This document shows, in pieces, positions 4,625 through 27,356 of a DNA stretch of 27,356 bases. Source of the DNA: a virus (taxonomy: Duplodnaviria > Caudoviricetes). How positions within the stretch are numbered: position 1 is the first letter of the stretch; the number at the start of each line of letters is the position of its first letter. The DNA lies in IMG/VR virus record IMGVR_UViG_3300017909_001965, positions 1-27,356 of that record, one strand, 5' to 3'. A program made the position numbers and the translations under genes. The notes below the pieces were generated by a model. That model saw only the letters and a program-made list of their open reading frames with translations. It did not search any database and had not been told where the DNA came from.

Positions 4625-4630
4625 ATCTTA
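4625..4630 (-). promoter_or_regulatory. Putative -10 box of a leaderless transcript
   Basis: TAAGAT-agagtt-ATG (6-nt spacer) with no SD before the 4618 start. Confidence 0.45.
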
Positions 4631-7600
4631 CTCAAATAATGTTGGGTCTTCGGTATTCAAATCTCTTTCTGTATCAATAGTGTCATTAAATTTAATTGCG
4701 TTACCAGTTCTACCTGTTATGTAATTTCTTATATCTTCTGATGTAATATCTTTAGGATTACCATTAAATACTTCTCTAATTATTACTGCATTAAATGCTC
4801 TTCTTACATTTGAATTAAGTTGTACTTTTTGTAGTATAAATTCTAGTTCTCCCATTTGATTTGATGTTGCAGCTCTATTTACTTGTGCATCAACATATTT
4901 CTTTTGTTTTCTATAATCACCAACTGCTAGACCATAGTTACTTGCATCTCTCCTAGCAACTTGACCAGCATTAAAATTAGTTGTTCCTCCAAATCTTTCT
5001 GGTTGATTACTTCCATAATGTGTTCCTGGAGTTGATTTAGGTTTTTTACCTCTAATCTCCATAGCATTTACTGACCTACCTTGAGAATCTCTTAATCTAG
5101 CATTACGCAAAAAATTATCAGCAGACTTTTCTATTTCAGCAGCTGCTTCATAAAACATACCCTGTTGGCTCATTTCACCTCTTCTAACTTTTTCTGCCAT
5201 TTTTGCTATTTCTTTTGGTGCTATTGCATCCGCAAACCCATCTATATCAAAAAATATAGAACTTTGAGCACTACTAAATTCTGCATCTCTAATTGCGTCT
5301 TCTCTATTACCAGGTGGTAATTTGATAACCTTTTGTTGTCCTTTAGATTTATCTCTTCCTTTAAATCTGTGTGAGTATATACCCTGTTGTCTAATAGATA
5401 AACTAAGCTTGTCAATATAAGTTAATTGAGTTTCAATTAGAACTGCCATTTCTGCAGGTTGCAAGTTTAAACCAGAACCATCAGGACCCTTAGCTATAAA
5501 ATTTCTAACTATTCTTTGATTAGTTTTGTAAACCAATTCTTCAAGTTGCACATCATTAAGACCTAATGTTGCTTGCTGTTTTTTAAGTATAGGTCTTATC
5601 TTATCTTTCAAGTCCATATTTATTCCTTGCGCTTGAAGTTGTCTTGCTGTAGCACTCAACCCCATTTGGCTCATAAACTTTGGGTCGTCAGGTGATGGTT
5701 CTTGCAATATTCTTAAATCGTCATAAGGAGTTCCACCAGCTAATTCTGCTGTATCTGAACTTACTACACCTTGTCCTCTTGCTGTACCGTATCCTACACT
5801 TCTACCAAACTGAGGTTTGTAACCAGTAATTTCATATACCTGCTGACCGGACTCTTCAGTCAAAACTCTCACATCATATAAACTTATATCAGGCTCATCA
5901 TAGGTTCTTTGTCCTACCCTCATATCAAACAAATCTCTAAATTCATCAGGAGCATCATCAGGTCCGTAAAATCTGAACTCAGAATTTTTTCTTGCAGCCG
6001 TTTGTGCTGTTTTTATATCTATAGCTGGATTGCCTGTGTTCATTGGAGTAAAAGCACTTCTACTGTCTCTTACTCCTTTTGATAAATATCTACCGCCAAA
6101 TATACCATCGTCAATAGTGTCACTCAATATCTCTAGTGTATTGGAATCTACATTGTTCCTCATGACTGCACTCTTATCTAACATAAGCCTTCCATTAGAT
6201 ACAAGTGGATTACCATGTCTATCCTTTCTGCTTTTTGCATACAATTCTTCCATAATCTTATCTTGTCTACCAGAAGATTTGTAAGTAGAACCATGAAGTA
6301 AAGCATCATTATTACCGTCAAACTTTTTACCAAATTGTTTTATTTGTTCTGATGATACTGCTCCCACTGGTTTCTTAGCAGACATGTTGAGACCATATGC
6401 AGTAGCTGCTTTAAGTCCTGCATTATACATAAGTAAGCTAGGAGTGAATACAAAAGCATCAGTTCTATTGTGTAACCTTCCAGCTCTATCAGTAGCAGGT
6501 CCACCCATCTCTATTTGGAAAGCATCTCTAATAGCATCGTTAGTTTTACTCTGTGGTGTTCTACCACCAAAGGCAACATTGATTTCAAAAGTAGAATCTT
6601 TTTTAGTTGTATCTGCTTCTTGTACATGAATAGCAGATTGAATTTGTCTTCTATTAGGAATGAAGTTATGTCTCTGTGGATTGTCATAACTTGTAGCGGT
6701 ATGTGTTTTACCATGATGTTCGTAGGTCTTATTAGCAGCTCTAACTTTTCTAAATTCATTTTCTTGAAAAGTACCAAAGTTTCCTTTTACAGTTTGTCTT
6801 CCAACTACTTTATTTACAGTCTTAATTCTTCTACCTGTTTCATATCTATTAGTTTTACTTGTAGTTTTTGGTTCATAAAATCTAGCATCCATAGCTTCTT
6901 TTGGTGTTAAGTCTCCAGCAGTGATACTTTCTATAAAATCAGCTTCCATAATTACAGTCTCTGTACTTTGCTTAATTATGTTCGAAGTTTGACTAGATGG
7001 AAAGTGTCTTGTAAAAGTACCGTCATCATGCAGCTCATCTATGTAATTACTGTAAAAAGTTTTTGAGCCTACTTTTTTTCTTGTGTATCTTGCTTCACCT
7101 AATAACTCAGTCATATCACCTCTTAAGTACCTTGAGGCATCTGCTACTTTACCAATTTCAGTTGAGTCTAAACCTTTTTCAAAAGTATTCTCTAATATTT
7201 TATTTACAATACCTCCTAGTAATCTATTCCTATCTGTTTTGTATCCGCCAGCGATAGCACCTAAACCTGATATCTCCTCTGCATCTCTTAGTACTTCAGA
7301 GTTTAAAATGTTTACAGCAGTCTCTACTAGTTGCTCTTGATTCATAGTACTAAGCTCACCAAAAGCATAAGTAGCACCTGCCATAGTTTTAAATTCTTCT
7401 AAAACTTCGTCATGATTAAAACCTAAATCTATAACAGATGAGTTGTTAGCCTTAGCAAATTTTTCTGCTGCACTTCTATCTGTAAACCTTGTAGGCTTCA
7501 TTACTGTTGCACCATCTACAGTGGTTCCTCTTGCACTTAAAACACTATATTCTCTTCTTTGGTCTCTTACTGCATTTGCATCTATTACATTTCTTATATC

Positions 7601-8278
7601 CTCAGACTTCAACATAGAATCAATATCTTCAGGAGTATATTGTTGAAAAGATATTGCAGCTGCTACTCCTTCATCGTTATAGCTCAGACCATCTCTTGTT
7701 CTGCTTCTTCTTTCTAAAGCATAATAATCAGGAGCATCAGCTATAGCTATAGCCTGAATGGACCTTGCAACTTTATCTAAACCTATTTTATTTTGTCTAG
7801 CAGCTTTTTTGACTTCGTTATCTACTTTCTTAGCATCTAGTTGAAACTCACCAAGTATTATATTTCTTGCTGTAGCCTCCATTCTTTTTAGTCTTAAAGA
7901 TGAAAATCTACCAGCTACAACTCTTAAATACCTTCCACCTAAACCACCCATTCCAGTAGGCATAACAGAACCTATTGCTGCACCAACAGCTCTACCACCT
8001 ACTTGATATACCATTCTTCGTATAATACTTTCACTTCTCATACGACCAGATGGTTGTTTCAAAGCAGCAAAGTCCCTTCTTCTTTGTAGAAATTGATATG
8101 AAGCTGTTCTAACTGCTTTACTATCTATACCTGATGCTGCAGAAAATGTACCTAAGTTATATGCAAATCTATAACCTTTGTCATCAAAAGAAGGAGAATC
8201 TCTTAAAGATTTGTAAAGTTGAGAAGGTCTTGCTACAGAACCTCTTAAATCTGAAACAAGATTACCTAAGTAACCCAT
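4628..8278 (-). CDS. Giant 1216-aa virion-module protein in the HK97 gp10-like slot
   Basis: Long ORF between head-closure and tail-terminator genes. It shows separated gp10-like motifs at about aa 167-184 and aa 545-620. The CDS is certain; the product call is tentative. Confidence 0.6.
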   Translation of the reverse strand: MGYLGNLVSDLRGSVARPSQLYKSLRDSPSFDDKGYRFAYNLGTFSAASGIDSKAVRTASYQFLQRRRDFAALKQPSGRMRSESIIRRMVYQVGGRAVGAAIGSVMPTGMGGLGGRYLRVVAGRFSSLRLKRMEATARNIILGEFQLDAKKVDNEVKKAARQNKIGLDKVARSIQAIAIADAPDYYALERRSRTRDGLSYNDEGVAAAISFQQYTPEDIDSMLKSEDIRNVIDANAVRDQRREYSVLSARGTTVDGATVMKPTRFTDRSAAEKFAKANNSSVIDLGFNHDEVLEEFKTMAGATYAFGELSTMNQEQLVETAVNILNSEVLRDAEEISGLGAIAGGYKTDRNRLLGGIVNKILENTFEKGLDSTEIGKVADASRYLRGDMTELLGEARYTRKKVGSKTFYSNYIDELHDDGTFTRHFPSSQTSNIIKQSTETVIMEADFIESITAGDLTPKEAMDARFYEPKTTSKTNRYETGRRIKTVNKVVGRQTVKGNFGTFQENEFRKVRAANKTYEHHGKTHTATSYDNPQRHNFIPNRRQIQSAIHVQEADTTKKDSTFEINVAFGGRTPQSKTNDAIRDAFQIEMGGPATDRAGRLHNRTDAFVFTPSLLMYNAGLKAATAYGLNMSAKKPVGAVSSEQIKQFGKKFDGNNDALLHGSTYKSSGRQDKIMEELYAKSRKDRHGNPLVSNGRLMLDKSAVMRNNVDSNTLEILSDTIDDGIFGGRYLSKGVRDSRSAFTPMNTGNPAIDIKTAQTAARKNSEFRFYGPDDAPDEFRDLFDMRVGQRTYDEPDISLYDVRVLTEESGQQVYEITGYKPQFGRSVGYGTARGQGVVSSDTAELAGGTPYDDLRILQEPSPDDPKFMSQMGLSATARQLQAQGINMDLKDKIRPILKKQQATLGLNDVQLEELVYKTNQRIVRNFIAKGPDGSGLNLQPAEMAVLIETQLTYIDKLSLSIRQQGIYSHRFKGRDKSKGQQKVIKLPPGNREDAIRDAEFSSAQSSIFFDIDGFADAIAPKEIAKMAEKVRRGEMSQQGMFYEAAAEIEKSADNFLRNARLRDSQGRSVNAMEIRGKKPKSTPGTHYGSNQPERFGGTTNFNAGQVARRDASNYGLAVGDYRKQKKYVDAQVNRAATSNQMGELEFILQKVQLNSNVRRAFNAVIIREVFNGNPKDITSEDIRNYITGRTGNAIKFNDTIDTERDLNTEDPTLFE

Positions 8279-18489: not shown

Positions 18490-18718
18490 CCAATGGTTTT
18501 AGGCGTGTAATCTTTTCAGGTATCTCATATCCCTGTGTTTCTAGCCAATAAAACATTTCATGTCTGGTAAATGGTCCTACTAACATAGGCTCATCATCTT
18601 TAGAAAGCCATATCTCCCAATACCAAACAGGTATTTTAGCTTTTCTTCTTTTCCTTTTGCCTTCGTTCTCGTCGAATAGCTCGTCTCTCACGTTCAGATT
18701 TACCACCCCAGATTCCAA
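18473..18718 (-). CDS. Hypothetical protein; start uncertain (possibly ATA at 18634)
   Basis: Fills the gap between whiB and the exonuclease. The annotated TTG start overlaps whiB by more than 80 nt. Confidence 0.55.
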   Translation of the reverse strand: MESGVVNLNVRDELFDENEGKRKRRKAKIPVWYWEIWLSKDDEPMLVGPFTRHEMFYWLETQGYEIPEKITRLKPLDDDGR

Positions 18719-18902
18719 ATCTCTCTTTGCGTTCTACTGCGAATTCTAAACACTCCTCTCTGACTTTACATTCTTTGCATATAGCCTTGGCTTTAACTGT
18801 TGAGCCACCTCTTTCTGGGAAAAACAAGTCCTGATTCTCTCCCATACAATTAGCATCTTTATAAAATTCTGGTATCTCTAGTATGTCGGCCAGCGTCGCT
18901 AT
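18636..18902 (-). CDS. whiB: WhiB-family Fe-S transcriptional regulator (extended to a proposed ATA start, 88 aa)
   Basis: ANC...DLFFP...AKAICKECKVREEC...FGIWGGKSERERR: four Cys plus GIWGG. The first Cys is the codon just upstream of the ATG at 18845. Confidence 0.93.
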   Translation of the reverse strand: MATLADILEIPEFYKDANCMGENQDLFFPERGGSTVKAKAICKECKVREECLEFAVERKERFGIWGGKSERERRAIRRERRQKEKKKS

Positions 18903-19121
18903 AAAATACTCTCCCTTACTGATACCTATATAGTAGAGAGTAACCTAAAGACTTAATAGATTTAATAAGATATACACCATAACCATCCTAAAGAGCTTTA
19001 TTCTTTGATATTTTTCCATCTTGAGTATGGTATGTGTCGAAAAAATTTTTTTTTCTGGGGTATACGGGGTTGTATAGATGAAATAACGTTCAAAACCGAT
19101 ACGCGTATGGGGGGAGCTAAG

Positions 19122-19559
19122 CTAATCCCCGTATTCTATTTGGAATTGTATAACCTCATCCTTGTCTCGGAAGTCCATGGTTGAGCGTTTGCCCCACTTC
19201 TGTGGGAACGACCTCTCTAAGAACCACGCTGACGCTTGCCACGTTCCATTGTCGGCTGCTTTCCTTATATTCCTTATATGCGCACCCTCAGCCTCAGCTC
19301 TTGCTTTTTTTACTGCCTCCGAAAACTCCGAATACATGTTAATAACCTCACCTTCACCGTCCTCCATTATTGCTGGTAAGGAAGAAGGGTCACCTGACTC
19401 TAGGGCTTTCTGATGGTCATCACCCCTTTTCATCCAGTCATAGTAGGTAGAAGCAGAGATACCAGCCATAGTGGCAGCATCCTCTTGATAGTAACCAAGC
19501 TTAAGCCAGTTACATATCTCATCAATCTTCTCTTGAGTTAACTTAGTAGGTCTTGCCAT
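19122..19559 (-). CDS. terS: Terminase small subunit (HTH)
   Basis: MARPTKLT...AATMAGISASTYYDW HTH, FSEAVKKARA and WQASAWFLER motifs. Confidence 0.75.
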   Translation of the reverse strand: MARPTKLTQEKIDEICNWLKLGYYQEDAATMAGISASTYYDWMKRGDDHQKALESGDPSSLPAIMEDGEGEVINMYSEFSEAVKKARAEAEGAHIRNIRKAADNGTWQASAWFLERSFPQKWGKRSTMDFRDKDEVIQFQIEYGD

Positions 19560-19565
19560 GAGGAC

Positions 19566-19574
19566 ATCATATCA
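19566..19574 (-). promoter_or_regulatory. Extended -10 promoter, leaderless terS
   Basis: TGaTATGAT-gtcctc-ATG with no SD. Confidence 0.65.
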
Positions 19575-19737
19575 CAATAGAGGTGGGAAGTGGGGGATAG
19601 GGGGGTGACGATTTCACCTCTACATTGAAAACTAGAAAAAAATTTGCGGGGAGCCAAGTATGAAAAAGGTATTATCTTTTTTGATTTATTCACCCCCCTG
19701 GGTACATCAAGAGTTAATACAAAAGAAAGGATAAATA

Positions 19738-19854
19738 ATGAATAAATTAAGTAACTACTACTACTGGGTAATAAGACCAATTATCTGGAAATATATTGAA
19801 GAACCAATATTGGAAAATAACTGGAGCTTCTATAAAAAATTATTAAAACTCTAG
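19738..19854 (+). CDS. 38-aa early micro-protein
   Basis: AGAAAGGA RBS; MNKLSNYYYWVIRPIIWKYIEEPILENNWSFYKKLLKL. Confidence 0.7.
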   Translation: MNKLSNYYYWVIRPIIWKYIEEPILENNWSFYKKLLKL

Positions 19855-19867
19855 AAAGGAGAACATA

Positions 19868-19996
19868 ATGACTAAGAAACTATCTGACTTTATTTGGGAG
19901 TATCTTATACCAATGTCAATATGTGATTTGATTATTACATATTACAAGAAGAAACATAACGACCCTGATATACGTCTTAATACAAGAATCAAGTAG
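19868..19996 (+). CDS. 42-aa early micro-protein
   Basis: AGAAAGGAG RBS; MTKKLSDFIWEYLIPMSICDLIITYYKKKHNDPDIRLNTRIK. Confidence 0.7.
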   Translation: MTKKLSDFIWEYLIPMSICDLIITYYKKKHNDPDIRLNTRIK

Positions 19997-20038
19997 GTAA
20001 ATCAAGTCTCTAAATACATGGAGGCTTGGACTTACCTA
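19994..20038 (+). promoter_or_regulatory. 45-nt intergenic hairpin (copy 1), putative RNA processing site
   Basis: TAGGTAA-AT-10-bp stem-loop-GAC-TTACCTA. Confidence 0.65.
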
Positions 20039-20067
20039 AATGGTAAGCAACAGGAAAGGAGCTAATT

Positions 20068-20205
20068 ATGGATGGTTATTCTGATTGGCAATTATTACTA
20101 GGCGCAGGTGTAGCAACAAGTACCTACATCTTTGTCATAGTACAGTTACTCAACAATCTAATTCCAAGATGGAAAGAGTATGTTGGGTTAGAAGAAAGGA
20201 AATAA
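20068..20205 (+). CDS. 45-aa single-pass membrane micro-protein
   Basis: GAAAGGAG RBS; MDGYSDWQLLLGAGVATSTYIFVIVQLLNNLIPRWKEYVGLEERK. Confidence 0.7.
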   Translation: MDGYSDWQLLLGAGVATSTYIFVIVQLLNNLIPRWKEYVGLEERK

Positions 20206-20207
20206 CT

Positions 20208-20327
20208 GTGAAAGAGAAAATCTGGAAATGGTTATGTAATCAAGACTCACTAATGGAAAACATTCCGTTAAGTATGGGTCTTTATATAGAAAGGAAAGCA
20301 AATGAATCCATGTGCAGTATGCGGTAA
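20208..20327 (+). CDS. 39-aa early micro-protein (GTG start; replaces the 80-aa track call)
   Basis: AGAAAGGA RBS before the GTG at 20208. Confidence 0.65.
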   Translation: MKEKIWKWLCNQDSLMENIPLSMGLYIERKANESMCSMR

Positions 20328-20388
20328 ACCGTTTTATTACATAATGGTACCTGCTTGTCAGGAATGTTGTAGAAAGGAGACCACATGA
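20302..20388 (+). CDS. 28-aa CxxC-CxxC zinc-finger micro-protein
   Basis: AGAAAGGA RBS; MNPCAVCGKPFYYIMVPACQECCRKETT; ATGA overlap with the next gene. Confidence 0.65.
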   Translation: MNPCAVCGKPFYYIMVPACQECCRKETT

Positions 20389-20519
20389 TAGGTAAAACTA
20401 TGATGATGGAGATTAGAGAACTCTGGACTTATAGAAATCTAATGAGTCTAGAAGATACTCTAGCGTATCTACGTAACAGATGGTATTGGTATAAACAAGA
20501 CCGTCAAAACAAAGAGTAG
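20385..20519 (+). CDS. 44-aa early micro-protein
   Basis: AGAAAGGAG RBS; MIGKTMMMEIRELWTYRNLMSLEDTLAYLRNRWYWYKQDRQNKE. Confidence 0.7.
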   Translation: MIGKTMMMEIRELWTYRNLMSLEDTLAYLRNRWYWYKQDRQNKE

Positions 20520-20561
20520 ATAAATAAAGCCCATGGGAGACTGTGGGCTTTGACTTATCTA
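20517..20561 (+). promoter_or_regulatory. 45-nt intergenic hairpin (copy 2), putative RNA processing site
   Basis: TAGATAA-AT-11-bp stem with GAGA tetraloop-GAC-TTATCTA. Confidence 0.65.
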
Positions 20562-20587
20562 TTAAAGATAAGAGAAAGGAGACTGAA

Positions 20588-20839
20588 ATGTCTCAATCTA
20601 AGAAGGTTGAGCAGTCCAAACTAACTCAGATAGATGAAGAGTTAGAAGTAACTAGAGCTGTATTGCTTGGTCAAGCTAAAGAAGAAGATGGTCAAGTGGT
20701 ATGGACTAGTGAGACTGTTCAAACCATTTCTAAAGAAAAAGAGAACAACAGCATAGTTGATAAGACTACAGCTGCGTTTTCTGCAGACTTCAGTGAAGCT
20801 GAGGATACATTCCTTATGTGGGCTGGAGAGAAAGGATAG
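20588..20839 (+). CDS. 83-aa acidic hypothetical protein (start corrected to the ATG at 20588)
   Basis: AGAAAGGAG RBS precedes MSQSKKVEQ... Confidence 0.75.
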   Translation: MSQSKKVEQSKLTQIDEELEVTRAVLLGQAKEEDGQVVWTSETVQTISKEKENNSIVDKTTAAFSADFSEAEDTFLMWAGEKG

Positions 20840-20841
20840 GT

Positions 20842-21021
20842 ATGGCGACTCAAACTATGACCTATTGCGATGGCTGTATGAAATACAGCAAAATAGCTAA
20901 GAAACAACGCAGATACAGTTCCTACTTTAAGAAATTCTTAAAGCTGGATTTCTGTAAACCCTGTGCAAATAAGTTGGGTATTGTTGTCAGTTATAAGCTG
21001 GCACATCCCACAGCAATATAG
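20842..21021 (+). CDS. 59-aa basic CxxC...CxxC zinc-finger protein
   Basis: AGAAAGGA RBS; CDGC...CKPC. Confidence 0.7.
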   Translation: MATQTMTYCDGCMKYSKIAKKQRRYSSYFKKFLKLDFCKPCANKLGIVVSYKLAHPTAI

Positions 21022-21032
21022 AAAGGATAGAT

Positions 21033-21185
21033 ATGTTACTCAAACGTATCAAATACTTACTGTGGTTATGGAAGGTAGGTAGAAAGAAGTTTCCTATGAA
21101 ACCTCTTATCGATACCAGATATGACACAGTAATACACGAATCCTACTGGACACCAGAAGGATATCAACCGAGAAAGGAGAGGTAG
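21033..21185 (+). CDS. 50-aa early micro-protein
   Basis: AGAAAGGA RBS; MLLKRIKYLLWLWKVGRKKFPMKPLIDTRYDTVIHESYWTPEGYQPRKER. Confidence 0.7.
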   Translation: MLLKRIKYLLWLWKVGRKKFPMKPLIDTRYDTVIHESYWTPEGYQPRKER

Positions 21186-21186
21186 T

Positions 21187-21378
21187 ATGCAAGCACTACC
21201 GCTTTTAGAAGGTAGTGGTGGGGGGAAACTCCCACCTACTACAACAATAATGGCTGCTTCATCAGATGATGGAGAGTTCGAAGCCATAATGATGAACAAC
21301 AATATGTTCCACGAAATGAGGGAGGACTTTGCCACTCCATTTAGTGAGGACATTTTATATGAGAAAGGAGCCAACTAA
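21187..21378 (+). CDS. 63-aa hypothetical protein
   Basis: AGAAAGGAG RBS; TAATG coupling to the next gene. Confidence 0.7.
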   Translation: MQALPLLEGSGGGKLPPTTTIMAASSDDGEFEAIMMNNNMFHEMREDFATPFSEDILYEKGAN

Positions 21379-21623
21379 TGGCTATAGTAACCAAGTTCGT
21401 GGACACCATGAACGCAATAGAAAAAGAAATGGAAGAGAAGAGCGTCGACATTCTAGTAATGGACGAAGTAAAACTCACCATTGATGCAAGAGAGGTAACA
21501 GATGAGGATGGTGTTAAAGACATCATTGAAGAAATCTGCATGGCTTTTGCAGGAGAGTTCGATAGAGGATATATCTTTAATCGTCTTAAAGAAGATGAGG
21601 ATGTAACTATCGACTCAGCTTAA
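21378..21623 (+). CDS. 81-aa acidic hypothetical protein
   Basis: AGAAAGGAG RBS; D/E-rich. Confidence 0.75.
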   Translation: MAIVTKFVDTMNAIEKEMEEKSVDILVMDEVKLTIDAREVTDEDGVKDIIEEICMAFAGEFDRGYIFNRLKEDEDVTIDSA

Positions 21624-21660
21624 CAGCTCGGAGCCCATTACGGTGGGCTCTAGGGTGTTA
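21621..21660 (+). promoter_or_regulatory. Intergenic hairpin (copy 3)
   Basis: TAACA...GAGCCCAT-TACG-GTGGGCTC...TGTTA; the AGCCCAT/GTGGGCT stem is shared with copy 2. Confidence 0.6.
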
Positions 21661-21694
21661 GGAAAGTCCTAATACTGTATAACAAGGAGGCAAT

Positions 21695-21874
21695 ATGTCT
21701 GCAACTTTAGTTATTCATCCTGCTACTAAAGCAGAGATGGACGACTTAATGGACTCTATGAAACTAGAGTCTGATAAAAACAAAGAAGAAGTACTTAACT
21801 TAATCTGGGTACCAGAGGTAGTAAAAGTATATCTTCAAGAAAGAAAAATAAATGGTAACCTTCCAGCTGCTTAG
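21695..21874 (+). CDS. 59-aa hypothetical protein, possibly ribbon-helix-helix
   Basis: AAGGAGG RBS; MSATLVIHPATKAEMDDLMDSMKLESDKNKEEVLNLIWVPEVVKVYLQERKINGNLPAA. The RHH guess rests only on a strand-helix-helix pattern. Confidence 0.65.
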   Translation: MSATLVIHPATKAEMDDLMDSMKLESDKNKEEVLNLIWVPEVVKVYLQERKINGNLPAA

Positions 21875-21946
21875 AGAGTCTAAGTATGGAAGGAAACAGG
21901 GATTAATGTTTACTAGCAATAGCATTAATACCAGGAAGGAAAAAAT

Positions 21947-23911
21947 ATGAAACTATATCCTGCTAGCGATAGCAGATATTCAGACAGAGAGATATGGCAT
22001 CCACGATTCGACACCATCTTCAGAGATGAAACAGATGAAACGATGTACTATCTCGAAATTCCAGTTATGTATTGGGATGACATACTTAATGGTGAATATC
22101 ACGATTGGGTGTACATAACAGATGAGCTGGAAGAACTATCTTATCCAAGAGAGTCATTACCTGATGACTATGCAGAAGAGAATGCTGCAGACTTCAGAAG
22201 TGCTGTCATTGGTAAGATATCACAGTATGTAAGAAGAGATATGCTCTGGCATGTTCAAGAAGATATACAGAACAATACCAATCAAGCTATGGTGTTGGGT
22301 GTATCAGTTTGGACACAAGACACAGGTCAATCTACTTCAGTGAGATACAGACTAGCCAGTCCTCACTACTGGGGTAGAAACCCACACATACTATCTAATG
22401 ACAGTGATGGTAATATTCGACAGATATCAACCAAGCTATCATTGGCTAAAGATACTGGTAGGTTCGAGTACACACGCTGGTTGGAAGGACATAGACCATA
22501 TACAAAATGCAAACTATGTGGTCACTTCAACAAATACAGAACAGAAATGGTTCCTGTCTATCATCAACAGAGAAGATGGCAGAATCGTAAGAACGTATGT
22601 ATCAAGTGTGTATGCTCACTTATCAAGGGCGATACTATTGGTGATGTTGGATATGATGGGGAGAATCAATTGATTATCTCTGACAATCCACAAATATACA
22701 GTCATCTTGATTATCACAACAAGGACTATCTTGTTACGGTAACAGGTGAGTATGGTAGAGCCTTTAGAAAGATTGCTGAGATAGAAGATGAATGGCATGT
22801 CAATATACTCAATGGCATCAAGCTTGTTGAGACAATTGATATACCTGCATGGGACTATGCATTTGATACAAGCATACATGCTTGGAACTGGAGATTCCCA
22901 ATCTTCTTGACTACGCCAAGAACTTATGGTGACCATGATAATCATTTCTTTGAGAGTCATTCACTAGGATACGATTGGCAAGACCCTAGTTGGTACGGTA
23001 ACACTGGACCATACTTTGGTGCAGAGTTTGAGTGCTTTGTCAGAAATGACAGACAAGACTTGCGTGCTAACAATGAGGTCAAGAAAACAGCAATCAAGAT
23101 GTTCCATCCTACTGACTATCCAACTGCATATACACAAGATGCTGAGCATCAACTGATATACGCTAAGGAAGACGGTAGCTTAAGTGATGGCGATGGTGTT
23201 GAGTTTGTGTCTCAACCACTTAGCTATGACTACTGGATGAACCATGTACCTGAAAGATTCTGGAACTATTTCAGAAACAACTTCAGAGCAAGGAACTCAT
23301 CACAGTGTGGTATACACGTACACATAGGATGGGAATCTATGGATGTAGTACAGAGATATATATTCCTGTACTTCTTGAACAGAATGAACCTAAGCAGTTC
23401 AGAACTGTTACAGCGTGTTGCTGGTAGAGGTAGTACATACTACTCAGTATGGAACTCACTTGTCTATCAAGGCTCAAGAGACCAAGTGTTTCAAGTAGCC
23501 CTTGAGAAGACACAAACAGGTGACAATCCTAAGTACAACTCTATCAATACAAGACATGCAGACACAATAGAGTTGAGATACTTTCAAGGTAACACTGGAG
23601 AGAACTCAATCAAAGGTATATTCCAATTCATCAATGGACTCTATCGCATCTCAGATGAGTTAGCTAATCCACACAGGGATTGGGATTATACAGAAGAAGA
23701 GCAACCAGAAGAACTTAAGTTCCTTCTAGAAGGAATCAAAGAACAGACGGACTCTACCTTCTTAAGACAATTGATGAACACTGAGAGACTAACTGCAGAT
23801 GATATCAAGTACTTTGTCAACAGAGTTGGTATAGATTGGATTCGTACCAAACTCAATGATGACGAGTATGGATATATGGCAGACAGGTATCTAGATGTTC
23901 CATCAATATAA
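21947..23911 (+). CDS. Putative amidoligase (COOH-NH2 ligase, glutamine-synthetase fold) with ~350-aa N-terminal extension
   Basis: FGAEFE, KEDGSL..GVEFVSQP, CGIHVH, KYNSIN and TIELRYF motifs; the extension has CKLC...CIKC. Confidence 0.9.
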   Translation: MKLYPASDSRYSDREIWHPRFDTIFRDETDETMYYLEIPVMYWDDILNGEYHDWVYITDELEELSYPRESLPDDYAEENAADFRSAVIGKISQYVRRDMLWHVQEDIQNNTNQAMVLGVSVWTQDTGQSTSVRYRLASPHYWGRNPHILSNDSDGNIRQISTKLSLAKDTGRFEYTRWLEGHRPYTKCKLCGHFNKYRTEMVPVYHQQRRWQNRKNVCIKCVCSLIKGDTIGDVGYDGENQLIISDNPQIYSHLDYHNKDYLVTVTGEYGRAFRKIAEIEDEWHVNILNGIKLVETIDIPAWDYAFDTSIHAWNWRFPIFLTTPRTYGDHDNHFFESHSLGYDWQDPSWYGNTGPYFGAEFECFVRNDRQDLRANNEVKKTAIKMFHPTDYPTAYTQDAEHQLIYAKEDGSLSDGDGVEFVSQPLSYDYWMNHVPERFWNYFRNNFRARNSSQCGIHVHIGWESMDVVQRYIFLYFLNRMNLSSSELLQRVAGRGSTYYSVWNSLVYQGSRDQVFQVALEKTQTGDNPKYNSINTRHADTIELRYFQGNTGENSIKGIFQFINGLYRISDELANPHRDWDYTEEEQPEELKFLLEGIKEQTDSTFLRQLMNTERLTADDIKYFVNRVGIDWIRTKLNDDEYGYMADRYLDVPSI

Positions 23912-23940
23912 AGAAACAATAGACAGAAAGGAGATTACAT

Positions 23941-24924
23941 ATGTGTGTAATCGCTAGCCTCCCACGAGGCAAAAACATATCCAACAAGAACCTCGACCAG
24001 ATGTGGAAGAGAAACCCAGATGGTGGTGGTATTGCTTGGATACAAGACGGTAAAATCCAAGTCTACAAGACTATGGAACTCAAGGACTTCAAGCAGAAGT
24101 TTAAAGAGGTAACAAGCAAGTATGGTGATTCAGACATACTGGTACACATGAGGATAGCAACTCATGGTTCAGTTTGTCTTGACAACAATCATCCATTCCA
24201 TATCGATACGCAGACTGTGTTTGCTCACAATGGCATTATGCCTCATGAGTTTCACCCACCTGCTAAATCAGACTTGTCTGATACAAGATACTTCAACAAA
24301 GTATTCTTGCAGAACATGAAGCCAATAGCATTGGACGACGAACTGTTCCGTACTGCTGTCGGTGACATCATCGGTATGGGTAACAAGCTAGTCATCTTGT
24401 CAGCCAACAAGAAGCTCAAGCAAGATTCATATATTATCAATGAGCATCTTGGTCAATGGGTCAAGGGCGTATGGTATTCCAATACAGCTCACATCCCAAG
24501 CAAGGGTGTCAAGTATGACAAAACAGGTGCAACAATTGGCAACCATCAACAAGGTACGATATGGAACGGATTTGACGGGACATTCGAACATGTTGATGAC
24601 TCATGCGAAATTGAGATAGCACCAGACGTTGACAGTAGCTGGTTTGACGAAGTAGAAGTCAATGACGAGTACTGGTGGTGTGAGACTATACCAGAAGAGG
24701 AGCTAGAGAAGGAATCAGTGCAAGAACAGATTGAGGAATTCTTAGAAGCTGCTGAAGGTAAGTACATGTACCAATACGAAACCTTTGATGACTGTATGGC
24801 AGACTTTGCAATACATTATGATGGTGGTTTCAGATGTCATGAATGTGGGCTACCAGTCAAGGCTGAATCTGGAAAGGTCGTAAGAGATTGTGACGTGGAA
24901 TGTTCAGCTAGGGTGTTTAGCTAA
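23941..24924 (+). CDS. Class II glutamine amidotransferase (Ntn hydrolase) with acidic, Cys-containing C-terminal tail
   Basis: N-terminal nucleophile M-C; NPDGGG, HMRIATHG, NNHPF, FAHNG and SDT motifs. Confidence 0.92.
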   Translation: MCVIASLPRGKNISNKNLDQMWKRNPDGGGIAWIQDGKIQVYKTMELKDFKQKFKEVTSKYGDSDILVHMRIATHGSVCLDNNHPFHIDTQTVFAHNGIMPHEFHPPAKSDLSDTRYFNKVFLQNMKPIALDDELFRTAVGDIIGMGNKLVILSANKKLKQDSYIINEHLGQWVKGVWYSNTAHIPSKGVKYDKTGATIGNHQQGTIWNGFDGTFEHVDDSCEIEIAPDVDSSWFDEVEVNDEYWWCETIPEEELEKESVQEQIEEFLEAAEGKYMYQYETFDDCMADFAIHYDGGFRCHECGLPVKAESGKVVRDCDVECSARVFS

Positions 24925-25313
24925 TGGCTGTACCAGACTGGAACAGAGTAGAAGGGGTGGTATCAACCACCTCTCCTACCGAGCAAGGTGAAAGATATAT
25001 TATGTCAGATGCTGCTTCTTATGATAACGATTCAATCGTAAGAGTAACAACTCATCATGAAGGTAGAGCTACATACCATGAACGTGGTACAACTACATTC
25101 ACTGTGCAACAAATAATAGATGATGGCTTGATGAATGGACATTGGGACAGAGAAGTAATTGATAACGGTCTCATACCTAATCGTCAAGAAATTCACGATT
25201 ATGCCAGAGAATGGATGTATGAATCAGGTGAAGTTGATGATTACGTAGACATTGACTACTCAGACTATGACCAAACTGATTGGGAAGTAGACGATATAGA
25301 AATAATAAACTAA
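24924..25313 (+). CDS. Acidic lysine-free protein A (paralog of 26381..26776)
   Basis: TAATG coupling to the amidotransferase; MAVPDWNRVEG start. Confidence 0.8.
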   Translation: MAVPDWNRVEGVVSTTSPTEQGERYIMSDAASYDNDSIVRVTTHHEGRATYHERGTTTFTVQQIIDDGLMNGHWDREVIDNGLIPNRQEIHDYAREWMYESGEVDDYVDIDYSDYDQTDWEVDDIEIIN

Positions 25314-25325
25314 CAAGGAGGAAAT

Positions 25326-26384
25326 ATGACGGAAGTCAATTTCGAATCGGAGGGACGTGCAAGGTCTCTCCGAGAATCAATACACTATAGTATGGACACA
25401 CAAGTGAACAGCTATAGTACAAGACCAGCATATTATTTCTTCTCACCAGAGAAGATGATAAAGAGTTGGACAAGAGCTACGAAAGTAGAATCTAACTTCA
25501 TAGATAACTATGGGATACCAATGGGTATGGAACTAGAGGTAGAACGTAGAAACTATGTTGGACGTGAAGATGATGCAGATAACATTCGTCACATTAACAA
25601 AGATGCGATGTGGAACTACTACATCAAACGCTTTGGTGAGTATACGAATGATGTTACTGCTGGTGTTGTTGACACACCCGTACAGTTCTTCATAGCTAAG
25701 GAAGATGGTTCACTATCTAATGGTGTTGAGTTTGTATCTCAACCTATGACATTAGGTATGTGGAGCAAAATACCTTTGTTGTTTGAAGACATTACTGGTG
25801 ATTATGCTGCTTACCATAGACGTACTACTGGTTTGCACATACACATACCAAAGGGTGCATTCGAAGATAGTCATCTTCATAGATGGTTACATTTGATGAA
25901 AGCATTAGGTAGTACTCCTGTGAATCACAGAAGATTATCTAATGTCTTAGCACTTATTGGTCAAAGACAGTTTAACAACTGGGCAAGGTTCATTATGCCA
26001 GAGTACAGAAATGTTAAATCACAACTAGCACAGGTAGCTATTGATAGAGTCAATCATGATGGTGGCAGGTACAAGTTCTTGAACTTCAATCCTGGTTCAA
26101 CTATCGAATTAAGATTCTTCAAGGCTAACATGCAGACACAGAGGATACTAAAGAACTTAGAGTTTGTTGACGCAACCTATGAGTTCACTAAGGGCATGAC
26201 TGATATGACACAATGTAATATCAACATGTTCACTTGGTATCTAAGAAACCATTCAATCAAGTATCAGAACTTACTTGAATATCTTGACGCACACAGTGAC
26301 AAGATTGATTGGGACTACAAATATGACCTTGACTCTTTTGAGTTGGAGGCACAAGAAAATATGAGGGAAGGAGAGTTGGTATGA
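25326..26384 (+). CDS. Second putative amidoligase (COOH-NH2 ligase)
   Basis: MGMELE, KEDGSLSNGVEFVSQP, TGLHIH, RYKFLN and TIELRFF motifs; AAGGAGG RBS. Confidence 0.9.
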   Translation: MTEVNFESEGRARSLRESIHYSMDTQVNSYSTRPAYYFFSPEKMIKSWTRATKVESNFIDNYGIPMGMELEVERRNYVGREDDADNIRHINKDAMWNYYIKRFGEYTNDVTAGVVDTPVQFFIAKEDGSLSNGVEFVSQPMTLGMWSKIPLLFEDITGDYAAYHRRTTGLHIHIPKGAFEDSHLHRWLHLMKALGSTPVNHRRLSNVLALIGQRQFNNWARFIMPEYRNVKSQLAQVAIDRVNHDGGRYKFLNFNPGSTIELRFFKANMQTQRILKNLEFVDATYEFTKGMTDMTQCNINMFTWYLRNHSIKYQNLLEYLDAHSDKIDWDYKYDLDSFELEAQENMREGELV

Positions 26385-26776
26385 CTATACCACAATGGAA
26401 TCTAGCAGAAGGAACAGCTACTAGTATTAGCAACTTAAGAAACGCAGGTAACTGGGATGATATGGGTGTTTACTTTGACGTATCACGTACTGAAGTAAGA
26501 CATCACTATCACAGCACAAGTGCTCGTGTTTCTATTGATACACTAGTGGAACTTAACTTACTACCAGAATCATCATTCACTATTGAACAAGATTCAATGG
26601 GTGGTACACATGTTGACTACAACGGTAGTGAATATGATATGAGTCGTGCTATTCAAGAATATGTTGACAATCACATGGACCATGATGATGAGTTTATGTA
26701 TTCAGAATCACAAGACAATGACTTTGCCGAATGGTACGGTCCAGCTAGTTATGACGATTACTATGACTGGGAATAG
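26381..26776 (+). CDS. Acidic lysine-free protein B (paralog of 24924..25313)
   Basis: ATGA overlap with ligase 2; AAGGAG RBS; MTIPQWNLAEG start. Confidence 0.8.
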   Translation: MTIPQWNLAEGTATSISNLRNAGNWDDMGVYFDVSRTEVRHHYHSTSARVSIDTLVELNLLPESSFTIEQDSMGGTHVDYNGSEYDMSRAIQEYVDNHMDHDDEFMYSESQDNDFAEWYGPASYDDYYDWE

Positions 26777-26785
26777 GAGGTAATT

Positions 26786-26878
26786 ATATCTAATTACATT
26801 TGGTTGTACTTTGAAGTGTTGTTCTACACAATAATTACAGCCATCATATTATACAAATACGCAGAACGTAAGTTCTAA
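26786..26878 (+). CDS. 30-aa membrane micro-protein with apparent ATA start
   Basis: AGGAGG-taatt-ATA, then SNYIWLYFEVLFYTIITAIILYKYAERKF*; a long hairpin starts at its stop codon. Confidence 0.5.
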   Translation: MSNYIWLYFEVLFYTIITAIILYKYAERKF

Positions 26879-26922
26879 AGTATATAGGGTCTATCTAAAC
26901 AGGTAGACCTTATTATATTTTA
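26876..26922 (+). terminator. 47-nt hairpin ending the ligase operon (terminator or processing site)
   Basis: TAAAGTATA-TAGGGTCTATCT-AAAC-AGGTAGACCTTA-T-TATATTTTA, 21 bp including G-U pairs. Confidence 0.7.
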
Positions 26923-27046
26923 AGACTAGGATTTAGGGCATTTTGTTGTCAGCATGGCAGAGGTCTATCCTGTCGGATATATAGGGAAAAAAATTTGCCA
27001 ACCAACCTTTCTCCTAATGCGACATTTTTCAAGGTGGGTAATGAGA

Positions 27047-27257
27047 TTTAACCATCAGGCCGTCTGGGTTTTACCATCAGGGTTTTAACTTACAACATCA
27101 AGGTCAATGTTTATAGGGTTTGTGTCTTGTAAGTAAGTTTCTCTTCAGGTCTGGCTGTGCATCTACCTTCTTCTTTGCGACACATACCTCAATGTTTATA
27201 GGCTTTTGTGTCGTGGCGGCGAAGCAGCGTGCTGCGCAGCATCTTTTTGGCCGGCCA
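27047..27257. repeat. Non-coding region with direct repeats and palindromes
   Basis: ACCATCAGG twice; TCAATGTTTATAGG-(1 or 2 nt)-TTTGTGTC at 27104 and 27189; palindromes TGCTGCGCAGCA (27230) and TGGCCGGCCA (27248). Confidence 0.6.
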
Positions 27258-27356
27258 GAGCCAGGCCGATTGTTTCACAACACATTTAGGACTTAATAAA
27301 TTTATTAATTCTTCTGTAACCTTTTCTGGTTTTTGAGTGTCTAAGTAAGGCAAGCA

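Follow-up and report, generated by a model that had tools for sequence, protein, structure and literature searches.

Phages commonly carry a ligase of the COOH-NH2 ligase superfamily next to a class II glutamine amidotransferase (GATase), and the substrate of this module has been a question since 2009. Descriptions of the ligase-GATase pair exist for phages that infect OM43 Betaproteobacteria and for a virus whose assigned hosts are Marine Group II archaea (PMC10580990, PMC11706807; here and below, papers are cited for individual passages). Two proposals for the module are in print, cell wall modification and secondary metabolites (PMC10580990, PMC5498523, PMC11706807), and the cell wall guess is still repeated in papers. 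Such genes have also been treated as nitrogen metabolism genes, with no enzyme assay in those passages (PMC10945688), and in other viral contigs, genes for thymidine hypermodification are accompanied by amidoligases and amidotransferases (PMC8989533). A search of titles and abstract openings returned no experimental substrate for the phage ligases. Here, we analyze a version of the module in the 27,356-base virus record IMGVR_UViG_3300017909_001965 (the window; 74% complete, 37% GC), in which genes for two ligases and a GATase are interleaved with genes for two small lysine-free proteins, A and B. The enzyme pair is a known, common phage module; the small proteins, which share an N-terminal I/V-P-x-W-N motif (IPxWN), are its new part. 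Neither this family nor the clamp-type motifs described below are mentioned in the passages on phage cassettes, supplements aside, and no literature search was aimed at the motif.

The window operon resembles the phiEco32/RIO-1/LUZ24-type cassette in its two COOH-NH2 ligases, its class II GATase and, in relatives, a gamma-glutamyl cyclotransferase (PMC5498523). It differs from that cassette in that both ligases belong to Amidoligase_2 and cluster as a probable lineage-specific duplication, and in that no ATP-grasp gene was seen among the 18 open reading frames (ORFs) of the window or among 20 selected ORFs of a complete relative (G001). Mycobacteriophage Marvin (gp105-106) and OM43 phage MEP402 (gp06-07) likewise carry an adjacent ligase and GATase of the same families (26-29% identity); unlike in the window, one ligase was detected at each of these loci, and no member of the small family was found there by profile or motif. 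In the EgtA/EgtC and butirosin BtrJ/BtrG systems, a ligase adds glutamate to an amine and an Ntn hydrolase or cyclotransferase removes it. Their substrates are small metabolites, or intermediates bound to carriers, within cellular pathways, whereas no such pathway genes are linked to the operon in the window. Pupylation (Pup, PafA, and Dop) shares with the operon the ligase superfamily and the presence of a small acidic protein beside the ligase. However, PafA and Dop belong to PF03136 and the ligases here match PF12224, and Pup has 50-90 aa and a C-terminal G[EQ] (PMC2588565), whereas the small proteins have 107-153 aa and are conserved at the N terminus.

The five-gene operon

The module is encoded on the plus strand near the right end of the window, opposite to the structural and packaging genes, which occupy the minus strand. 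It comprises five intact ORFs at the positions where an earlier note on this DNA had placed them:

21947..23911, plus strand: ligase 1, 654 aa; N-terminal region of about 290 aa without a family, then an Amidoligase_2 catalytic domain (PF12224, E 7e-7)
23941..24924, plus strand: GATase, 327 aa; class II (Ntn) domain at residues 1-185, acidic tail, C-terminal Cys4 cluster
24924..25313, plus strand: small protein A, 129 aa; 0 Lys, 23% Asp+Glu, N-terminal V-P-D-W-N, hypervariable body, ends in IIN
25326..26384, plus strand: ligase 2, 352 aa; stand-alone Amidoligase_2 domain of the glutamine synthetase/glutamate-cysteine ligase fold (PF12224, E 2e-5)
26381..26776, plus strand: small protein B, 131 aa; 0 Lys, 21% Asp+Glu, N-terminal I-P-Q-W-N, ends in DWE; its start overlaps the ligase 2 stop

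The gaps between ligase 1 and the GATase (29 nucleotides [nt]) and between A and ligase 2 (12 nt), together with stop/start overlaps at the GATase-A and ligase 2-B junctions, confirm the tightly packed and partly coupled operon that had been noted before. Known phage neighborhoods of amidoligase and class II GATase, also mentioned in the earlier note, were recovered as well: of 76 IMG/VR loci, 74 have a GATase directly beside the ligase, and the remaining two break off at the ligase.

A small-protein family conserved at its N terminus

Small proteins were collected from 77 metagenome loci and from viral loci. A profile found 116 ORFs, all of which possess the motif, a count that is partly circular in that the motif lies inside the profile. 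Across 68 distinct complete proteins, with about 24% Asp+Glu, the P, W, and N are invariant and are preceded by I or V in every case. The [IV]PxWN codons are mixed synonymous ones and nine different residues occur at x, which indicates selection at the protein level; a DNA-level repeat as the origin of the motif was rejected on account of the mixed codons. Residue 2 is small (T, G, A, V, or S) in 64/68 proteins. The distance of the motif from the start varies, and in two distant GVPxW homologues it lies about 8 residues in. The N terminus is the conserved end of these proteins. The C termini, in contrast, are unconserved, with E or Q as the last residue in 17/68 (background, 15.9%) and G-[EQ] in 1/68, which speaks against the Pup-like C-terminal ligation that had been proposed for this operon.

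At least one small gene is present between the GATase and ligase 2 in all 42 near-clade loci (many of which are near-duplicates), despite changes in copy number and order. Co-occurrence of ligases and small proteins, put forward in the earlier note as a check, is thus seen throughout the near clade. In the 32 loci with at least 900 nt beyond ligase 2, one small gene was found in 3, two in 20, and three in 9; with one, two, or three small genes per two ligases, the one-to-one ligase-substrate pairs envisaged in that note do not hold. Its view of A and B as paralogs fared better in part: the two appear related from their shared motif, composition, layout, and joint profile, whereas their pairwise alignment is limited to the first 17 residues.

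No Pfam family was assigned to the small proteins, with weak matches each confined to at most 2/70 members, and an Atlas search with A gave scores below 0.8 only. A profile search of 1.84 billion representatives returned 37 matches, three of them very long and repetitive; of the others, those that were read comprised this family, fragments, one chimera, and the two distant GVPxW homologues. Judged by sequence, the small proteins are a narrow, lineage-restricted family. In a second sister clade, the slot between the GATase and ligase 2 is occupied by an acidic protein of 190 aa that starts with IPKF and includes a long stretch free of lysine; homology of this protein to the small family is unsupported (hhalign probability, 2.8%). 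The AlphaFold model of A is of low confidence (mean pLDDT, 56.5), and only the helices at residues 61-101 are confident.

A zinc-finger protein of 160-190 aa with an IPxWN start and a C-terminal CxxC...CxxC was also observed (L107:8365-8955, L109:6376-6930, L008:14413-14895, and L129:11495-12070, all on the minus strand). It reads IAKWN in L129, lies near SSB and DUF932 genes in G001, and has no Pfam match.

Lysine depletion and exchange of A alleles

Lysine accounts for 0.94% of residues in the small proteins (30 clusters) and for 0.28% after residue 20, compared with 7.4% in other acidic ORFs of the same loci (58 clusters; Mann-Whitney p, 4e-14, which is overstated, the clusters being related). 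Arginine is higher in the small proteins (5.3%) than in the acidic control ORFs (3.3%). Lysine deserts in ubiquitin-ligase receptors limit self-modification and have been linked to the avoidance of ubiquitin or Pup ligation (PMC10665810). Furthermore, A shares 48-78% identity across six loci whose GATase domains are 98-99% identical and whose ligase 2 sequences, one of them partial, are 94-97% identical. On one contig, A is exchanged from base 24945, just past the seven motif codons, to base 25302. A variable body behind a constant docking peptide is more in keeping with an adaptor than with a tag.

Both ligases retain the catalytic residues of the superfamily

Ligase 1 and ligase 2 score 29.8 and 25.2 bits against Pfam Amidoligase_2 (PF12224; cutoff, 22) and are 26% identical over 291 aa (E 4e-18). 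Residues E69, E71, E135, H171, E261, and R263, which make up the ExE, the strand-3 Glu, the first His, and the ExR, are invariant in 92/92 aligned ligases. The superfamily features ExE, acidic residues on strands 2 and 3, HxH, arginine fingers, and ExR are all present, with Lys in place of the loop Arg in 15/18 members of the ligase 1 clade. In line with the earlier note, which had named the same motifs, the two ligases are intact paralogs. The model of ligase 2 (pLDDT, 94.8; pTM, 0.94) has YbdK/GCS2 (Z, 11.3; rmsd, 4.0; 221 aligned) and glutamine synthetases (Z, 11.1) as its best fold matches; PafA and Dop are absent among the best 50 matches listed, which does not exclude them. A Pfam scan of the ligases to E 0.1 matched PF12224 only and not the PafA/Dop family, and a PDB sequence search gave no match. 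Ligases of this kind use ATP to form an acyl-phosphate, which is then attacked by an amine, and ATP-dependent amide formation by both enzymes is predicted.

In a phylogenetic tree, ligases 1 and 2 of the marine lineage cluster together, apart from 49 distant phage ligases (SH-aLRT, 98; long branches meet at this point), so that the pair probably arose by lineage-specific duplication. Residues 1-160 of ligase 1 contain two Lys and are followed by CxxC pairs; an Atlas search with this N-terminal part gave scores below 0.8 only and no lead. Ligase 1 also carries an internal segment that resembles the small-protein motif:

22841..22855, plus strand: internal I-P-x-W-D segment of ligase 1, directly before the catalytic domain

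IPxW[DNTS] is kept here in 11/20 distinct segments (the window and relatives down to 43% identity) and is missing from L010, L122, L123, and the sister-B clade. The segment speaks for a ligase as the partner of the small-protein motif. However, the other ORFs, 482,323 residues in total, contain 8 occurrences of [IV]PxWN spread over four protein families, so that chance could account for the copy in ligase 1.

Two or three ligases, in some cases with zinc-ribbon repeats, are encoded at each of the distant loci L075, L077, and L079. ORFs that look ATP-grasp-like by eye occur at L075 and L077, and L077 also has a cyclotransferase; these loci are close to the classical cassette.

An intact GATase with clamp-type motifs in sister clades

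The GATase passes Pfam GATase_4 (29.5 bits; cutoff, 23), and its nearest solved relative is GlmS (E 4e-4), whose N-terminal Cys and glutamine-site residues are kept. C2, R71, H96-N97-G98, and D114 are invariant in 47/47 aligned domains, for which C2 was a selection requirement, and the glutamine-site patterns HxRxxTxG, [ST]D[TS], and HNG are found in 45/47, 46/47, and 47/47, respectively. With these matches, the Ntn enzyme is judged to be intact. Its linker holds a further candidate element:

24550..24564, plus strand: degenerate clamp-binding-like pentapeptide QGTIW in the GATase linker (candidate only)

In sister clades, the GATase tails read QTSLF, QTTLF, QPTLF, QLSLF, QQQLPF, or QPKLF. QxxL[F] or QxxLPF was found in 4/4 and 2/3 clusters of these clades, with 0.23 and 0.06 expected from shuffles, and the published beta-clamp consensus is QLxLF (PMC4549789). 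The 20 selected ORFs scanned in G001 include no polymerase and no clamp, so this phage likely uses the host replisome.

A cyclotransferase downstream of the module in relatives

A gamma-glutamyl cyclotransferase gene (PF06094) lies 1.1-1.8 kb downstream of the module, on the opposite strand, in 10/53 near loci and in 5/12 of those with a 3-kb flank. It is also found in 3/8 sister-B loci, 1/23 sister-A loci, and 3/69 distant loci, as well as at another place in the complete G001. The window ends 580 nt after B; the absence of a cyclotransferase reported earlier is correct for the window and is probably an effect of where it ends. Gamma-glutamyl cyclotransferases cyclize a gamma-glutamyl group that bears a free alpha-amine, which favors free glutamate over a protein C terminus as the donor. 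The linkage is loose, and the argument is of moderate weight.

Proposed function of the operon and alternative explanations

We tentatively favor, at somewhat less than an even chance, a function in reversible gamma-glutamylation of a macromolecular amine, aimed by exchangeable lysine-free adaptors and possibly taking place near the replisome. A ligase would join the gamma-carboxyl of glutamate to a primary amine of the macromolecular target, and the attached glutamate could be removed again. The small proteins would act as exchangeable adaptors rather than tags: all would dock through the N-terminal motif on a common partner, either a ligase or the GATase, the target would be selected by the variable body, and lysine would have been purged so that the adaptor escapes its own modification. 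The Ntn enzyme would cut the gamma-glutamyl amide or supply ammonia, and the complex may be tethered to the host replisome by the clamp-binding-type motif of the GATase. An elaborate form of this proposal, in which a cullin-RING-like writer-eraser recruits lysine-desert receptors to its ligases via IPxWN, rides the host beta-clamp via the GATase, and reversibly glutamylates host replisome or defense proteins in Pup-less streamlined marine actinobacteria, appears improbable as a whole.

Several observations weigh against reversible glutamylation through adaptors. Docking, the adaptor role, gamma-glutamylation, and clamp tethering are predictions, as are binding and activity. No member of the small family was detected at 70 distant IMG/VR loci or in the sister clade with the gene order GATase-ligase-ligase, and the absence of the family from most phages with the ligase-GATase pair means that the enzymes do not always need small proteins. 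The same N-terminal motif starts the unrelated, lysine-containing zinc-finger protein, outside the operon, at five loci, and the partner of the motif may therefore be something other than the ligases. The clamp-like motif of the window is degenerate, and the pattern, defined for the near clade after inspecting the data, matches in 1/6 near-clade and 3/27 distant clusters. The cyclotransferase is encoded on the opposite strand, is missing from 7/12 long-flank near loci, and occurs in only 3/69 distant loci. Finally, an acidic, lysine-poor composition also fits DNA mimics, and it suits escape from host pupylation, an option that is kept because one 36%-GC locus belongs to a 1.5-Mb genome that has a Pup ligase.

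The small proteins could instead be independent early anti-defense or host-takeover proteins (acidic, DNA-mimic-like inhibitors with a common targeting peptide) that share no more than a transcript with the enzymes, with the enzymes making a small gamma-glutamyl amide or altering peptidoglycan peptides, a role put forward for phiEco32-type cassettes; we regard this as unlikely, if a serious contender. It would account for the high Asp+Glu content and for the allele swapping of A, which is typical of arms races, and it is consistent with the sharing of the motif with an unrelated protein outside the operon, with an enzyme pair that is common without the small family, and with the cell wall and superinfection proposal in print (PMC5498523, PMC10580990). 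It does not readily explain why the GATase-ligase 2 slot is filled in 42/42 loci, or why the sister clade fills the slot with an acidic IPKF-start protein of unsupported homology; moreover, Arg is not depleted in the small proteins and no export signal is visible in the enzyme sequences. Archaea lack peptidoglycan. The presence of the pair in a virus assigned by prediction to archaea (PMC11706807) argues against the peptidoglycan part of this explanation.

Somewhat less likely again is that the small proteins are covalent substrates or tags, with the N-terminal amine gamma-glutamylated or joined to a target carboxylate, or with Glu/Asp ligated to host lysines; a Pup-like C-terminal tag is a small part of this possibility. 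The small residue 2 would fit Met removal and a free amine beside the invariant motif, the absence of lysine would prevent self-crosslinking, and linkage to the enzymes is tight. However, the C termini are unconserved, copy number is uncoupled from ligase number, the motif-to-start distance varies, up to the two distant homologues with the motif about 8 residues in, and a tag with its alpha-amine tied up in a peptide bond could not serve as substrate for a cyclotransferase. The least probable of the explanations considered is DNA modification after replication, in which a modified base would receive ammonia from a GATase tethered to the clamp, or glutamate from a ligase, and the enzymes would be regulated by the acidic proteins as DNA mimics. 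Mimics of the Ocr/ArdA type presumably have an acidic surface spaced like the DNA backbone; the small proteins have 24% Asp+Glu, and the model of A is of low confidence. Clamp-type motifs on sister-clade GATases, the exact QLSLF included, intact glutamine-binding residues, and the co-occurrence with thymidine hypermodification genes (PMC8989533) are in keeping with this explanation, but no base-modifying enzyme is found among the 20 scanned G001 ORFs, the motif is degenerate in the window clade and rare in distant phages, and these phages assemble and sequence normally.

Host assignment and pupylation

A WhiB gene in the window (Pfam E 4e-20; Acidimicrobiia make up 7/10 nearest genome records) points to an actinobacterial host of the Acidimicrobiia, and a WhiB tree did not resolve the host within this class. 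The WhiB frame at window 18636-18845 (minus strand) extends upstream of the listed ATG, and because the first conserved Cys falls only in the extension, the true start is probably a non-standard codon further upstream. A Pup ligase is present in 233/301 sampled Acidimicrobiia genomes (230/298 without three unpublished genomes). Among the 20 listed genomes without a Pup ligase match, 17 are 0.9-1.1 Mb, and five such genomes gave loci of 34-36% GC; the one 36%-GC locus from a 1.5-Mb genome with a Pup ligase was mentioned above. "Candidatus Actinomarinales" genomes have about 32.5% GC and 1.1 Mb, and their phages have 33.6-36.5% GC and carry WhiB (PMC7771536). We infer that the small, low-GC genomes lacking a Pup ligase are "Ca. 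Actinomarinales." The likely host group may lack pupylation, and the pattern suggests that pupylation was lost on genome streamlining. The earlier note had placed infection in a host lineage with widespread pupylation. The actinobacterial host agrees with WhiB, but the pupylation link is weak, because the enzyme pair occurs in OM43 phages and in the archaea-assigned virus and because the GC-fitting 0.9-1.1 Mb genomes have no Pup ligase match.

Other features of the window and its relatives

Two hairpins flank the operon:

26884..26913, plus strand: terminator-like hairpin of 13 pairs that closes the operon after B (from a consensus scan only)
21616..21700, plus strand: conserved intergenic hairpin 5' of a 59-aa gene and ligase 1, with compensatory upper-stem changes in relatives

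The hairpin at 21616-21700 recurs 5' of the module in many relatives, some of which have several copies in one genome, and is a probable early-transcript processing site that resembles the RNase III processing sites of T7-like early transcripts. Rfam gave no match in window 19000-27356, this hairpin included. Further copies of a bulged hairpin between early genes were seen at window 20525-20552 and in L160 (4 copies) and L161 (2 copies). Parts of the operon are covered by contigs of two RNA-labelled runs, which cannot serve as evidence of transcription. Two contigs (runs X1 and X9) have about 236 extra bases directly after small protein B (window 26776), probably an optional gene.

An acidic, lysine-poor ORF of 57-63 aa with a Gly-rich N-terminal stretch is conserved 5' of the module (window 21187-21378; L010:2629-2802) and has no family match. 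Between the head-tail connector genes, window 4628-8278 (minus strand) encodes a 1,216-aa protein without an obvious family, homologues of which (1,100-1,250 aa) occupy the same position in G001 and G002. G001 also encodes a SET-domain protein and an AIPR-family protein (L166:3123-3425 and L165:875-2089).

Significance

The clamp-type motif of the sister-clade GATases hints, in concrete terms, at a target of the module that lies in the cytoplasm and close to DNA. This lineage offers three handles for bench work: the ligase is compact and well folded, the docking motif has seven residues, and the partners are lysine-free and allele-swapped, with variation that should track the choice of target. 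If the small proteins are confirmed as adaptors, the operon would represent a modular phage protein-modification system distinct from pupylation and from ubiquitin-like pathways.

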